The notes: generated by a model from the letters alone, not told the origin. 64,000 nt of DNA from Eledone cirrhosa (GCA_964016885.1 OZ024745.1:50654001-50718000), one strand, 5' to 3'. Positions 4,936-57,262 are shown, counted from the stretch's first letter. A program made the numbers and translations.

Positions 4936-5375
4936 TATTGTTTTACTTTGGGAGGGTCATGTTGTCAATAAGAAACACATGCACCAGTTGTTTCACTCCA
5001 ATTTATTATAAATTAAAAAATAAAAATTTTTTTTTTTTTTAATAAATTTCCGGTTGGTTGGTTGGTTCTACAACCGGACGGTTGTTCATATATTGTCAAA
5101 GTTCTTTCGTCACACATTTTGTGACCTCTTCGTTTTTTTTCAAAAACAAGATGGCGTAGGACAGAACAAAGGAGAGGCACAAAACAAAGAAAAGAATCCC
5201 CAGTCACCGAAGATGTCACAGAATGTGTGACGTCCGGTTGTAGAACCAACCAACTAACCGGAAATTTATTAAAAAAAAAATATTTTAAATTTTTTAATTT
5301 ATAATAAATTGGAGTGAAAGCAACTGGGGCGTGTGTTTCTTATTGGCAACATGACCCTCCCAAAGTATAACAATA
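4936..5375. repeat. Fold-back element: about 145-bp inverted arms around a 150-bp spacer, next to (TA)n; hammerhead remnants at the spacer edges
   Basis: ATTGTTTTACTTTGGGAGGGTCATGTTG...CAACCGGACG (to about 5080) pairs with CGTCCGGTTG...CAACATGACCCTCCCAAAGTATAACAAT. Confidence 0.9.
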
Positions 5376-5468
5376 TCGGTTTCAACACACGTTTTCAGAT
5401 AAAGAATCTTGCTAAACAAATTCAGAAACGATATATATATATATATATATATATATATATATATATAT

Positions 5469-6003
5469 CAATTAAGTTAAAGATGTACATCCATATATGT
5501 ATACTGAAATATTAGTATGTATATGAATACACACACGTATACATATGTAGATGTACCAAGTTTTTTCACTGGTCACTTTACTGTGAGTGGCCAGCTATTC
5601 TGTATGTAAACACACAGACAAACCGGTTTTTAGAGTCATACTGGTTTTTGAGGAAACACCTTTCCTCTATTCTACAGAAAGCCAGACAAGGAATATTGAA
5701 CTAGTTTCGTTGTTGTTACAACTCATCAGCAATATTTACCTATCTTCCGGCCTCTCTAGAGAATCGTAAAAGCACATATCGTTATATGCTTTTTCTATGA
5801 AAATTAGTAGTGGGCAGACCAATTTGCATAGAGTGTGAGTAAGTACCGGTTCAACGGAGACGATAAAAACAAATAACGAAACGAAATTAAATTTCGTTTC
5901 GTTTGTAAAAACTTGGTACATCTACATATGTATACGTGTGTGTATTCATATACATACTAATATTTCAGTATACATATATGGATGTACATCTTTAACTTAA
6001 TTG
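5469..6003. repeat. Fold-back element: about 97-bp near-perfect inverted arms, hammerhead in the spacer
   Basis: CAATTAAGTTAAAGATGTACATCC...GTACCAAGTTTTT pairs with AAAAACTTGGTAC...GGATGTACATCTTTAACTTAATTG. A second interleaved IR pairs 5866-5908 with 6031-6072. Confidence 0.92.
5692..5736 (-). ncRNA. Minimal type I hammerhead ribozyme
   Basis: Reverse complement reads AAUAUUG CUGAUGA GUUGU AACA ACAAC GAAAC UA GUU CAAUAUU: perfect 7-bp stem I, 5-bp stem II, palindromic ACUAGU stem III, GUU site. Confidence 0.85.
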
Positions 6004-6129
6004 TTTAAGCGTCAGTCATACAAAAGTGAGTTACAAACGAAACGAAATTTAATTTCGTTTCGTTATTTGTTTATATATATATCGTTATATACCAAAATGA
6101 AAATCCGAAGGCAAGGTAAAATTTCCAAT

Positions 6130-6216
6130 CATTTTAATCACGACACATGTTTCAATAAGAGATAAATCGATCGTGAAGCCATGATCAATTATCACTGATC
6201 TCATCAGGTGAAAATG
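6130..6216 (-). ncRNA. Type I hammerhead ribozyme (extended stem II)
   Basis: Reverse complement reads CAUUUUCAC CUGAUGA GAU...AUU GAAAC AUGU GUC GUGAUUAAAAUG. Confidence 0.75.
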
Positions 6217-7492
6217 AATTGTCTTCAAATTCTTGATATGAGGGAGAATATTAGCAATGTTCACCCACAGAGTTTATTCCCTCATATGAAGATCAAGCAG
6301 TCAAAATGCGGCGACTGCTATCAACTTCAGTTAAGGTCATAAAACTATCAAGTTTCTATATCCCAATAGCTGCAAAAGACGCTGGACATCAATCAAATCT
6401 GTAGAAATACAGTCGGTCACAGTTAATGTGAGTGGGTATCACACACTCAACACCCACACACACCGGCTTGAGGTCAAAGAAAAAAAAAATATATATATAT
6501 ATATATATATACACACACCTCAACACAGTATCAAATCTGTAGAACTATAGACGGTCACAATTAGTGTGAGTGGGTACACACACACTCTCACACACACTGA
6601 AGCGATGTCAAAGAAAAAATAATAAATATAAGAATATACCAACATAGCATTCACCGAAAGTTAGTTTACAAAACTACAAATGCTACATTGGTCAAATCTC
6701 TATTTGACGATATAAATTGGAAATATTGGGTCAACCACAGCCCCATACACACACACATACACACACACATACACACACAAGTAAGTTCAGTTCAGTGTTC
6801 TGCTATACGATAGATGTGTATATACCTAGACATACACTTTTTTGGACGATACGGATGTGTATATACCATAACATACACTATTTGGAGATACGGATGTTAC
6901 AATTCAATCTATACACGTATAGCAGAACACTGAACTGAACTTACTTGCTTGTGTGTGTATATGTGTGTGTATGGGGCTGTGGTTGACCCAATATTTCCGA
7001 TTTACATCGTCAAATAGAGATTTGACCAATGTAGCATTTGTAGTTTTGTAAACTAACTTTCGGTGAATGCTATGTTGGTATATTCTTATATTTATTATTT
7101 TTTCTTTGACATCGCTTCAGTGTGTGTGAGAGTGTGTGTGTACCCACTCACACTAATTGTGACCGTCTATAGTTCTACAGATTTGATACTGTGTTGATGT
7201 GTGTGTGTATATATATATATATATATATATTCTTTGACCTCAAGCCGGTGTGTGTGGGTGTTGAGTGTGTGATACCCACTCACATTAACTGTGACCGACT
7301 GTATTTCTACAGATTTGATTGATGTCCAGCGTCTTTTGCAGCTATTGGGATATAGAAACTTGATAGTTTTATGACCTTAACTGAAGTTGATAGCAGTCGC
7401 CGCATTTTGACTGCTTGATCTTCATGAGGGAATAAACTCTGTGGGTGAACATTGCTAATATTCTCCCTCATATCAAGAATTTGAAGACAATT

Positions 7493-7547
7493 CATTTTCA
7501 CCTGATGAGATTTATCTATTATTGAAACATGTGTCGTGATTAAAATG
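7493..7547 (+). ncRNA. Type I hammerhead ribozyme (mirror copy, 32-nt deletion in stem II)
   Basis: CAUUUUCAC CUGAUGA GAUUUAUCUAUUAUU GAAAC AUGU GUC GUGAUUAAAAUG. Predicted cleavage after C7535. Confidence 0.75.
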
Positions 7548-7689
7548 ATTGGAAATTTTACCTTGCCTTCGGATTTTCATTTTGATATTAATATTCCTTT
7601 TTACATCATCTAGCTGTTCTCTTGAATGGAATTGGAGATATACTAAAGGGTGGAGAGCTGCAGAGTGGGTATAGAGATATGTAAAATCC

Positions 7690-7922
7690 CAACCGCGGTG
7701 CCATGCGGTTCAACTTATGTGTTCAGCAAGCCTTTTCAAAAGGTTTGCTGACGCCCAAGCCGAAACTGCTTGGCGCTTCGGTCGGGAATTTTACATCTCT
7801 CTCTCATCATCCTGTTCAGTTGGAGATGGTTGCTCCTGACAGGACCCGCTGGAAGGAGTGTTTGAGGACTCTGCTCCCAGGACCCTCTCAGGAATACGTG
7901 GGCGAAGAAGAAGAAGAAGAAG
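7690..7922 (+). mobile_element. RTE-clade LINE 3' fragment with (GAA)n tail
   Basis: Translates to EMVAPDRTRWKECLRTL, resembling the RTE C-terminal A.DR..W motif, followed by GAAGAAGAAGAAGAAGA. Confidence 0.6.
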
Positions 7923-55620: not shown

Positions 55621-56009
55621 AGGAGATGGCATCGGTGGTAATAACGATGGTGTTATTAGAAATGATGGGGGTAGAATGATGGCAGAGTACATGATGGTGC
55701 CGGTAGTAATGATGAGGATGATGGTAATGGTGATTTTGTTAATAGTAGGGGAGGGAATGTCACTAAGTTTCTAGACCCTTATAAATAAACCTTATGCCAG
55801 TACAATATCTGTATACACTCACAAACACTGACATCCGCACACGCACGTACATACATACATATATACATAAATGCATGTGTAAACATCAATTTAATTCATA
55901 TATGCATTCGCTTATACAAATGATCTTAATGCAGAGAATTCTACTCTATTAATCTATCTCCTGGAGTTGAGGGTTGTTCTATCTACGGGGTATTAAACAA
56001 CCCATTTGT

Positions 56010-56152
56010 AACGCCCCCCCCCCCTATTGGGGATTTCGATTGTTGAATTTGTTTGTTTAAAATTTTTTTTTACACGATTGTATGTAAAATCCCCGACATA
56101 TGTCCTTGTATTGTACCCTTTCTTGTGCGCCCTTGTGGCAAATAAAGAAATC
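56010..56152 (+). mobile_element. Solo 3' UTR fragment of a Tx1 LINE related to the element at 571-4626, followed by (CTAT)n
   Basis: AACGCCCC..CCCTATTG.GGA..TCGATTGTT...TGTATGTAAA...GCCCT.GTGGCAAATAAA is shared with 4488-4620. Confidence 0.78.
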
Positions 56153-56703
56153 TGTCTATCTATCTATCTATCTATCTATCTATCTATCTATCTATCCATC
56201 TATCCATCTCTCTCTATCCCCCTCTCTCTATATATATGTGTGTGTGTCTGTGTGTGTGTGTGTGTGCGGGCGTATACAAATACACACGCAGACACACACA
56301 CACACACACACACGTGTATTTGTTCGTACTGCCTCTCTGTTTTGTTCCCGTTCAATTTTTTACTATATATATATATATATATATATATACATTATATGCT
56401 CAGGTGTCATTGTATGGTTAAGGAGTTCGCTTCGCAACCACGTGGTTTTGGGTTCAGTCTCACTGCGTAGTATCGCGAACAAGTGTATTCTACTATAGCC
56501 TCAGCATGACCGCAGTCTAATTGAAACTATTAAAGAATATATATAATTTTAAAAGTACCAGTCGATTCTTCCTCTATAGAAAAAATCGGCTGTGTTCAGA
56601 CCTGGAGAGGGTTGGGCTCCACCATGTTTAAATGACCACGACACGCCGTATGATGGTGCCTCTACGTCTCCACAAGGGTTTATCCTTATATATATATATA
56701 TAT

Positions 56704-56797
56704 ACACGTCTAATGATTTTGGAGCATATTCTCTCAGAGTGAGAAAATATGCTCCGAAAATATGCTCCGAGAATATGCTCCAAAATCATTAGACGTG
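56704..56797. repeat. Fold-back hairpin with internal triplication of AATATGCTCC
   Basis: ACACGTCTAATGATTTTGGAGCATATTCTC...GAGAATATGCTCCAAAATCATTAGACGTGT. Confidence 0.85.
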
Positions 56798-56844
56798 TCC
56801 GTCGAACCTGCGGGTCCAGAATCAGACAGATCCACACAATGATC

Positions 56845-56882
56845 GTGTCTCGAGCTGTCCGCCGGCGAAACAATTGTAACAC
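56845..56882 (+). ncRNA. Degenerate hammerhead (2-nt deletion in the CUGANGA box), followed by AATAAA
   Basis: GUGU CU--CGA GCUG UCCGC CGGC GAAAC AAUU GUA ACAC. Confidence 0.55.
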
Positions 56883-57198
56883 ACAATAAATTGAGTTCAG
56901 ATGCATCACTGATTTTTCGTTTTATATTATATATACTCTGCTCTGTAAGAGCATAGAGTGCTCAACCGGCATACCGTCTATGGAAGCATCTTAGCTACCA
57001 CCCGACACACACACACACACACACCACACACATATATATATATATATACACAGAGAGTGTAACGTGAAGTTACTGTAGGTTCACCCAGGTGACCACTCGA
57101 TGTTTAGGTCCACGTCTATAGCGAAGTGTAGAGCTAAACAGTGTGTAAATATAATAGTACAAGGACGATTTGTTATGCCTTCATTACGTTTATTGATT

Positions 57199-57262
57199 GG
57201 TGACACGCGTTTCACTATTGATCAGCTCAAGGTTCGATCTGGAATAAAAAGCTCGTCGGACC
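57199..57262 (-). ncRNA. Type I hammerhead ribozyme (U4C variant), followed by AATAAA
   Basis: Reverse complement reads GGU CCGACGA GCU...AGU GAAAC GCGU GUC ACC AAUCAAUAAA. Confidence 0.68.

Follow-up and report, generated by a model that had tools for sequence, protein, structure and literature searches.

Minimal type I hammerhead ribozymes are known from the pseudo-long terminal repeats (pLTRs) of Penelope-like elements (PLEs) and from non-long-terminal-repeat (non-LTR) retrozymes. Published counts, made with differing descriptors, reach about 9,000 motifs in Xenopus and about 4,000 in coelacanth (PMC4209133), and 126,247 in axolotl, over 6,000 in coral and about 5,000 in mussel (PMC7229834). 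Published systems are compared here as far as the consulted sections of each paper cover them. A hammerhead belonging to Hydra-1_oBim from Octopus has already been listed (PMC8557442); the consulted sections of the retrozyme papers name no cephalopod (PMC7229834; bioRxiv 10.64898/2026.07.22.740005), and a repeat paper on O. vulgaris contains 0 occurrences of hammerhead, ribozyme or retrozyme. The PLE protein of anole nicks and extends both strands, sets the tail by two internal starts and uses uncut RNA (PMC11167929). Naiad retroelements are reported to lack hammerheads. Type-SGC ribozymes, whose core blocks are reordered, comprise 583 sequences from metatranscriptomes and cut in vitro, and the consulted part of that report places none in the genome of a known organism (PMC10085705). 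Here we analysed a 64,000-nt stretch of DNA from Eledone cirrhosa (OZ024745.1:50654001-50718000; hereafter, the window), in which (TA)n and (CA)n tracts are abundant and hammerhead-bearing islands are scattered. We consider it very probable that these islands are the 3' ends of PLEs, of the Neptune type and the Hydra clade, together with non-coding tandem units that likely use the same enzymes. The system is of a known kind, made up of hammerheads in PLE pLTRs and retrozymes borne by PLEs; its scale and regularity were not found in the papers searched, and no earlier account of such a scale was found in that literature (subscription papers outside coverage).

The window was searched with a descriptor of the type I core and helices I-III, with 30 local dinucleotide shuffles as controls. 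An initial annotation had named eight type I hammerheads. Six of them passed with all three helices (the type I motifs of families A, C in both copies, F, H and K in Table 1), and two, at 35322(-) and 57199(-), failed in helix I or the core. The density in the shuffles was far below that of the window, with means of 0.03 canonical and 0.10 U3-A8 matches against the six named motifs, and a stricter descriptor gave four window matches against 0.015-0.04 in 200 shuffles at each of three block sizes. A further match of the descriptor, 16946-17024(+), lacks a palindrome and was taken to be due to chance. Several motifs deviate in detail. A deletion shortens helix II at 7498-7539(+), a U.U lies at the base of helix II at 51715-51752(-), and the core at 28391-28478(+) reads UUGAUAA, a U3-A8 swap. 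At 35322(-), the core is present and two helix I mismatches adjoin it; these pairs are intact in relatives. The true first core box of 57199(-) lies at 57253-57259, 50 nt further up than first placed, and the U4C core of this family N is seen in most of seven copies, beside the short helix I given in Table 1. In Rfam, 5676-5747 was the only hammerhead among the 150 best rows (Hammerhead_HH9, 37.7 bits, E 6e-6; gathering score 52). At the gathering score there was none in the window or in eight related loci, where the lists were dominated by microsatellite-like microRNA models. Helix III is self-complementary in all six passing motifs, as had been noticed. That many families share only the core was also supported, but several half copies regarded as unrelated belong together: 8230 is of the same family as 51885, and 62190 groups with 53783, 17261/17327, 20840 and 21500, a group that is not type I. 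The original observation was partly confirmed, and its interpretation was partly supported, with three corrections.

The high density is a property of the genome and not of this locus. We took 79 evenly spaced 10-kb stretches (790 kb) of the 3.0-Gb genome; 43 of the 79 lie on the four largest contigs, which make up 54% of it. The sample descriptor required one helix III pair and did not demand self-complementarity, and families D, J and SGC fall outside its count. It found 82 canonical motifs in 35 stretches, against 0-2 per shuffle in 10 shuffles. Thus, the density of the window is average for the genome: 1.04 per 10 kb (bootstrap 0.65-1.56), which corresponds to 1.9-4.7 x 10^5 motifs per genome, or 0.78 per 10 kb without two arrays of 7 and 15 copies. 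An exact pattern for one helix III class had 111,538 genome matches against 3,840 in a reversed control. The U3-A8 core was found eight times in 790 kb (0-3 in shuffles), seven times with a palindrome, and a C4 core once; the control cores U3-G8, C3-A8, A3-U8, G3-C8, A4 and G4 showed no excess over shuffles. Helix III was self-complementary in 67 of the 82 motifs, against none of five shuffle matches. The AATAAA/ATTAAA signals and (TA)n tracts noted in the window recur in the sample. Such a signal lies within 30 nt past the cut in 21/82 motifs (4% background; controls: 2/82 upstream, 10/82 antisense) and in 18 of the 46 that are left after repeats per region and family are taken out; (TA)5 or longer lies within 150 nt on the 3' side in 29/46 and on the 5' side in 8/46. 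The targeting of microsatellites proposed in the initial annotation is supported. Fragments of PLE open reading frames (ORFs) amount to 25.7 kb over 25 of the 79 stretches. This scale suggests that PLEs are under-annotated in such genomes.

Every island searched is multi-copy. The copy numbers are first-look candidates from genome searches and range from 52 to 2591: A 137, B 1786, C 1102, F 929, G 395, H 1320 and N 2591, with the 52 of K being an undercount (21 matches in 15 of the 79 sampled regions); J has 20 matches in 11 of these regions. As the initial annotation had stated for the window, no Penelope ORF is visible in it, nor in 10 kb on either side (tblastn with 13 queries; only noise at E<=1), and its long ORFs are of the long interspersed nuclear element (LINE) type. 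The proposed origin from Penelope pLTRs or retrozymes is supported, by ORF linkage in families B and C and by ORF-free tandem units in A and F. In other words, the islands are non-coding in the cases of A and F, whereas those of B and C are the 3' ends of coding elements. The C-terminus of a Neptune-type GIY-YIG protein lies 208-240 nt upstream in 9/23 copies of B, and a Hydra-type ORF lies 1.35-1.54 kb upstream in 4/23 copies of C. The B parent (translation of locus L016) has the CX4CxxC linker and, at its C-terminus, GIY-YIG with CCHH, the latter matched by Pfam with E 2e-4 and 22.0 bits, slightly below the cut-off of 22.6. The C parent (locus L036) has the Hydra-type linker, CxxC and CxH. 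A hammerhead in the pLTR and insertion at (TA)n were seen in the C parent and in the family of locus L051.

L051 (G000:C2:205667102-205670725) represents a separate Hydra family outside the window, which was reached via a locus of A. It shows RWK, DKT, the CxCX5C linker, CxxC, CxH and a C-terminal endonuclease without CCHH; Pfam matched no domain in its ORF. This family is very young: the 781-783-aa ORF is intact, there are 42,125 first-look candidates, all 150 scored copies are 97-100% identical, and many full-length copies are open, with the hammerhead in the pLTR.

Units A and F form head-to-tail arrays with periods of 468-469 and 591 bp, respectively, and 98-100% identity. They contain 35% and 42% G+C, their longest frames are 65 and 86 codons, and no PLE ORF is present; with a single type I hammerhead each, they have the features of non-LTR retrozymes. 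The circular folds have z values of -12.9 for A, which is helped by an internal TA-rich hairpin, and -5.1 for F (40 shuffles). The core and helix III of hammerhead F are preserved in an 81%-identical relative (L063), and stems covary in the A lineage, where helix I and helix II both show compensatory changes. Unit A was present in three of four contig sets compared; ends and joints are not visible there. Further retrozyme arrays were encountered at L159, L168 and L093, with units of about 482, 422 and 310 bp. The units of about 482 and 422 bp are related to A; their helix I has changed in a compensatory manner, and they contain an internal hairpin, rich in TA, that resembles a captured target. 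In the A lineage (window 5800-5850(-); L097, L153, L159, L114), the octamer ATGCAAAT precedes the core by 67-100 nt; it occurs in 7 of the 46 motifs overall against a background of 1.9%; we take it to be reminiscent of the small nuclear RNA-type promoter of newt satellite 2. Two apparent parents were rejected. Unit A is not the pLTR of the neighbouring Hydra ORF in L007, which owns a different pLTR, and F does not follow the Neptune ORF in L122, where a (TA)n tract and the end of another element intervene. L007 is a composite of three families: in L007/L035 (G000:C14:12907411-12910531), an inverted Hydra copy, 1.2 retrozyme A units and a Neptune-type B 3' end are joined without (TA)n. The joints carry short microhomologies and reflect either template switching between families or later deletions. 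A type III-order match within the RTE-like reverse transcriptase coding region (L118, L148; three copies) is probably a coincidence of coding sequence.

The insertions have a regular anatomy. The predicted hammerhead of each family sits shortly before the 3' end that joins (TA)n, and each family has two preferred 3' ends, which lie, counted from GAAA, at about 60 and 200 nt in C, 62 and 151 nt in K, 48 and 114-127 nt in H, and 88 and 253 nt in F. Among 41 head-to-head pairs, 38 combine one short and one tailed end, three are undecided and none has two ends alike. The islands are not plain snap-back palindromes, as had been thought, because in these 38 pairs each arm stops at a different one of the fixed 3' ends. 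The rule held in 13/13 pairs from the spaced stretches, which were picked regardless of content (the H loci are query-biased); the window pairs of B, A, C, D and H obey it, and SGC-family pairs add eight that are discordant for the tail and one undecided. In the cut-site start analysis, BLAST starts are approximate, the window itself is included among the 111 copies, and the cut of family J is placed 5 nt too early, with no effect on the count; 91 of the 3'-flank copies run across the predicted cut and one begins within 3 nt of it. A pile-up of 5' ends at the cut site was not found, and the template spans the predicted cut. We propose that the GIY-YIG nuclease would nick both strands of a (TA)n tract, and that both DNA ends would serve as primers for reverse transcription, which would start at two internal sites of the uncut (or religated) RNA, 50-165 nt from each other. 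Both cDNAs would stop early and be joined at their 5' ends, which would leave a mirror pair with a single tail. The mirror pairs, the two ends and the cut-spanning copies fit the in vitro work on the anole protein (PMC11167929) and the reported layout of an inverted copy plus tail (PMC8557442). The rule of one short and one tailed end makes the question of Penelope mirror insertion directly testable with the young intact Hydra enzyme of the same genome.

Some findings speak against this account. Contiguous parent ORFs were absent among the 54, 20, 7 and 2 copies of A, F, D and G and among the 24, 29, 3 and 13 copies of J, K, M and N; thus, the enzyme that would move the non-coding units is inferred from the shared footprint only. 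A decayed Hydra-like ORF lies 274 nt before one copy of H (L146). Furthermore, arm-to-arm identity (0.954) falls between the family mean (0.916) and the best other copy (0.975), so that the arms may derive from either one or two RNA templates.

The predicted hammerheads are real motifs, and that they cut is a prediction from their sequence. In the six passing window motifs, helix III forms a self-duplex at -2.2 to -12.9 kcal/mol and no monomer hairpin; together with the self-complementarity, this leads to the dimer model of PMC4209133. We suggest that most type I motifs would cut as dimers through helix III within tandem transcripts and would yield unit-length, probably circular RNA. Unit-length RNA is a likely product because two motifs are at hand both in the arrays and in pLTR-ORF-pLTR transcripts. 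Lone truncated copies, as in the window, are likely to be mostly inert. With a poly(A)-type hexamer past the cut, a transcript might become either a polyadenylated message or a cut unit. Other observations count against cutting of this kind. Helix III of family B is not self-complementary (+1.4 kcal/mol) and those of D and J are longer, so the dimer model does not cover all motifs; eight of nine dimers were uncleaved in the preprint that links retrozymes to PLEs (bioRxiv 10.64898/2026.07.22.740005); and minimal PLE hammerheads cut poorly in vitro (PMC4209133). In D and J (Table 1; L125), helix III is 4-5 bp long with 8-9-nt loops that hold a short palindrome, and with such helices these two families may cut as monomers.

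If the islands are genuine PLE remnants, the hammerheads may still have ceased to cut and their folds been kept as protein-binding or packaging signals. Copies that span the cut site would agree with this explanation, as would the weak helices II and non-standard cores of H, N and C. In anole, moreover, hammerhead mutants left insertion unaffected and no RNA-seq reads ended at the cut; the anole motif did, however, cut in the presence of the protein (PMC11167929). Loss of cutting also does not sit well with the maintenance of the core, the UH triplet and the U3-A8 swap in young families of 99% identity and across helix I/III types that number at least 27, nor with the compensatory changes that both helix I and helix II show in the A lineage. 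We regard it as unlikely.

The family of 62190 had been recorded as a type I half copy, but its core blocks stand in another order. GAAA lies 21-23 nt ahead of CUGANGA. A UH site is found upstream of GAAA; its flanks form helix III with the strand that follows GAAA and helix I with the strand that precedes CUGANGA. All core bases are present, in the block order S, G, C. The GAAA-21-23-CUGANGA pattern had at least 18,130 genome matches against two in the control, and an order-blind descriptor found five SGC motifs in 790 kb against none in eight shuffles. Covariation was examined in 37 distinct sequences picked for diversity from 58 full-length ones. In these, 94.3% of cells pair, against 27-48% for slid partners, and 20/35 pairs change on both sides (helix I 6/7, helix III 2/5, Pc 5/6, Pb 4/7, Pd 2/5). 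Pc is an extra helix that bridges the far ends of helices I and III, and Pb is a hairpin. The internal loop between helices III and Pc holds opposed GA steps (alignment A1, columns 50-54 and 84-89). A continuous helix II between the flanks of GAAA and CUGAnGA was not found: a single pair, 10.1-11.1, is present (U-A in 18, U-G in 12 and A-U in 6 of the 37), and both strands pair with the upstream strand (Pa, Pd). From this, helix II appears to be reduced to one pair, seated on a four-way junction that is predicted from Pa, Pb and Pd. Of the 58 sequences, 43 have the triplet AUA, 12 AUC, two ACC and one AUU, and H17 is never G in 58/58, although it was absent from the search pattern. A second SGC family differs in the sequences of helices I and III, has GUC as its triplet and keeps the order and spacing; its pattern had 184 matches, a mix of the second family and variants of the first, against none in the control. 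Readings of the 62190 family as type II or nested type I were ruled out, with no helix II or consistent UH in those registers, and a GNRA-like loop in the linker was given up, as helix Pd explains it better. SGC elements lack ORFs and form partial tandems of about 530-700 bp. Their two 3' ends fall about 23 and 62-75 nt past the core, and mixed pairs occur. Six copies, all damaged, are present in the window, of which that at 21406-21510 is the best.

One large family would thus use a hammerhead with SGC-order blocks, its helix II reduced to a single pair that stacks on a four-way junction formed with the upstream strand. On balance, we favour the reading that this is a working hammerhead of at least 18,000 copies and of previously unpublished wiring, with helix II split and replaced by such a junction, that it would cut as a monomer, in contrast to the palindromic motifs around it, that it derives from Naiad, that it is spread as a non-coding tandem by two-ended priming, and that the hammerhead population in which it lies is denser than any in the papers searched. 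The link to Naiad rests on the supplement of Craig 2021 (PMC8557442): by eye, the record preceding Naiad_Ovul ends in the same layout with a 23-nt spacing, and Naiad_Ovul is labelled 'HHR_half_core' there. The motif may belong to Naiad on these grounds. To be set against this proposal are the following. A Naiad ORF, with its N-terminal endonuclease, precedes the motif in 0/15 extended SGC loci and 0/74 matches, by a motif scan only, with no Naiad query; Pa never varies and was partly selected for by the search; and the SGC sequences are related, so shuffle counts overstate their support. The motif could instead be a scrambled, dead remnant of a type I hammerhead. Helix II with only one pair, the truncation or mutation of all six window copies and the C opposite A at the 10.1-11.1 pair of the second family are what such decay would leave. 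Decay would hardly produce two families with different helix I and III sequences in the same order and spacing, covariation of the 10.1-11.1 pair in the first, or the same layout at the end of the record before Naiad_Ovul (by eye), and we find a dead remnant doubtful. If the SGC-order motif cuts, non-circularly permuted ribozymes would be common in animal retroelements and no longer a peculiarity of RNA circles from the environment, and the Naiad clade, described as 'hammerhead-less', would possess a hammerhead that escapes standard descriptors and Rfam. In the literature searched, within the coverage given above, no prior description of SGC motifs was found, either for animal genomes or for Naiads.

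Could the islands be independent non-coding retrozymes, without coding parents, whose cDNA snaps back during insertion? The ORF-free tandem units of A, F and the SGC family would suit this, and the mirror junctions of D, H and J lie within the hammerhead (often so for D and J), where a cDNA hairpin could self-prime. The arms are also more alike than the family mean in 36/41 pairs. On the other hand, B and C are the 3' ends of coding elements, and the snap-back of a cDNA begun at the short end cannot add a tail, with equal-end pairs numbering 0/41. We therefore judge independent retrozymes highly unlikely. Miniature inverted-repeat DNA transposons with chance hammerhead-like words, which the long inverted arms flanked by TA and the mariner-like fold-back at 46152-47009 might bring to mind, are extremely unlikely, because the arms are unequal, vary in 5' length, use two different 3' sites, carry a one-sided tail, and also occur singly, in head-to-tail arrays and after reverse transcriptase/GIY-YIG ORFs.

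Other elements are present in the window. A frameshifted L1/Tx1-like LINE at 946-4386 has an APE domain (Pfam PF03372, E 5e-10), a reverse transcriptase downstream and a gag-like low-complexity ORF before it. The 3' fragment of a restriction-endonuclease-like LINE (zf-RVT match, PD..D motif), of a family common in the fetched loci, lies at 26600-27367. The fold-back at 46152-47009 encodes, as read from translation, the N-terminus (helix-turn-helix) of a mariner/SETMAR-like transposase, and 43504-44321 is a minisatellite of 22 copies of a 37-bp unit with 96% matches. A repeat resembling a short interspersed nuclear element, at 49205-49652 (201-bp tandem), 19815-19987, 27700-27790 and 53635-53715, often adjoins hammerhead islands. 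Further fold-backs at 12142-12197, 12291-12449 and 20096-20392 contain no recognisable hammerhead box.

Table 1. Hammerhead-related features of the window; positions are those of the whole 64,000-nt stretch and strand is given as + or -.
Feature	Position	Strand	Description
Family B head-to-head pair	4938..5430		Neptune-type 3' ends; left arm (-) with short end, right arm (+) with tail of ~55 nt
Family B broken hammerheads	5094-5134; 5202-5232	-; +	First without core start; second mutated, GAAA lost
Family A island	5468..6076	-	440 of the 468-bp non-coding tandem unit, plus inverted tailed arm 5904-6076 (+)
Type I hammerhead A	5692..5736	-	Helix I 7 bp, helix II 5 bp, helix III ACUAGU, triplet GUU
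Family C head-to-head pair	6089..7655		Long 3' untranslated region of Hydra-clade element; left arm with short end; right arm tailed, tail interrupted by another insertion
Type I hammerhead C	6138..6211	-	Helix III ACAUGUGU, triplet GUC, ATTAAA 3 nt past cut
Hammerhead C mirror copy	7498..7539	+	Helix II deletion
Family D head-to-head pair of 3' halves	8087..8275		GAAA, 5-bp helix III, GUC; lacks the 5' core box; 80-nt tail on one arm
Truncated SGC-order head-to-head pair	17214..17374		GAAA then CUGAUGA; cleavage block lost
SGC-order element, partial tandem	20551..21515	+	Internal 129-bp duplication; first motif 20803-20892 internally deleted
Near-complete SGC-order hammerhead	21406..21510	+	Cleavage block, GAAA and core in order; A9 and one Pa base substituted; short end meets (TA)n at 21515
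3' half only	27846..27910	+	GAAACAAUUGU; like U3-A8 family of locus L096 (one match, E 2e-6)
Family F	28190..28548	+	Part of 591-bp non-coding tandem unit; short end at (TA)n
Type I hammerhead F	28391..28478	+	U3-A8 core, branched helix II, 10-nt palindromic helix III, GUC
Decayed type I hammerhead G	35322..35370	-	Helix I broken beside core; old family, 70-83% identity
Family H head-to-head pair	51683..51860		Motif 51715-51752(-) intact, with core CUGAGGA and helix III ACAAUUGU; tail of ~66 nt on the other arm
Second family D 3' half	51868..51925	+	
Small head-to-head pair of 3' halves	52053..52200		GAAACAUGYGU; no relative among fetched loci
Family J motif	52348..52470	+	Truncated immediately before core; by eye 4-bp helix III, 8-nt loop
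Truncated SGC-order motif	53763..53832	-	GAAA and core blocks kept
Type I hammerhead K	53853..53917	+	Helix I 8 bp, helix III AUAUGUAU, triplet AUA; AATAAA 4 nt past cut; very common family
Family M fragment	56700..56930	+	Core decayed; 3' half GAAACAAUUGU intact
Family N motif	57199..57264	-	Core CCGACGA, long helix II, helix III ACGCGUGU, 3-bp helix I
5'-truncated SGC-order motif (62190 in the initial annotation)	62115..62215	-	Tailed end at (TA)n

The type I motifs agree with the minimal hammerheads that PLEs carry in their pLTRs, as described by Cervera and de la Pena (2014, PMC4209133), in the type I order, the short palindromic helix III, the extra base after A9, the many families per genome and the prevalence of truncated copies that stand singly. 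Pairs on opposite strands with a spacing of 100-700 bp are also shared, as is the U3-A8 variant (in Schistosoma). The difference is one of number, with 2,000-9,000 motifs per genome there and roughly 2-5 x 10^5 here, a rough comparison given that the descriptors differ. As in the Hydra and Neptune PLEs (Craig et al. 2021, PMC8557442), we found RWK, DKT, CxCX5C, CxxC/CxH and a hammerhead in the pLTR, together with insertion at (TA)n, an inverted 5'-truncated copy and a one-sided tail. The tails are about 50-165 nt here and 30-40 bp there, and one Hydra family here, with 42,125 first-look candidates and at least 150 copies of 97-100% identity, is both abundant and very young. Non-LTR retrozymes (Cervera and de la Pena 2020, PMC7229834; Li, Clavereau and Pollet, bioRxiv 10.64898/2026.07.22.740005) share with A and F the ORF-free tandem units with one type I hammerhead each, a G+C content below 50%, a well-paired circular fold and the proposed mobilisation by PLEs. 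In contrast to the published retrozymes, units A and F (468 and 591 bp) directly show PLE ends, that is, two 3' ends, a tail and a TA target. The 126,247 motifs of axolotl sit in a genome about nine times larger than this one (PMC7229834). The anole Poseidon PLE in vitro (Frangieh et al. 2024, PMC11167929) shows the same nicking and extension of both strands, two internal starts of reverse transcription and an uncut template; it belongs to another clade with another target, and tail discordance in genomic mirror pairs was not counted in the consulted part of that work. Finally, type-SGC ribozymes (Eckert et al. 2023, PMC10085705) have the same order of cleavage site, GAAA and CUGAnGA, the same core bases and a pseudoknot of helices I and III. 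Their helix II is full, whereas the motif here has at least 18,130 genomic copies in a PLE-type repeat, a one-pair helix II with a predicted four-way junction, and an extra bridging helix. Because the published SGC has a full helix II, we describe the motif here as working like SGC and do not file it as SGC; it is predicted to be a ribozyme architecture that the literature searches did not return.

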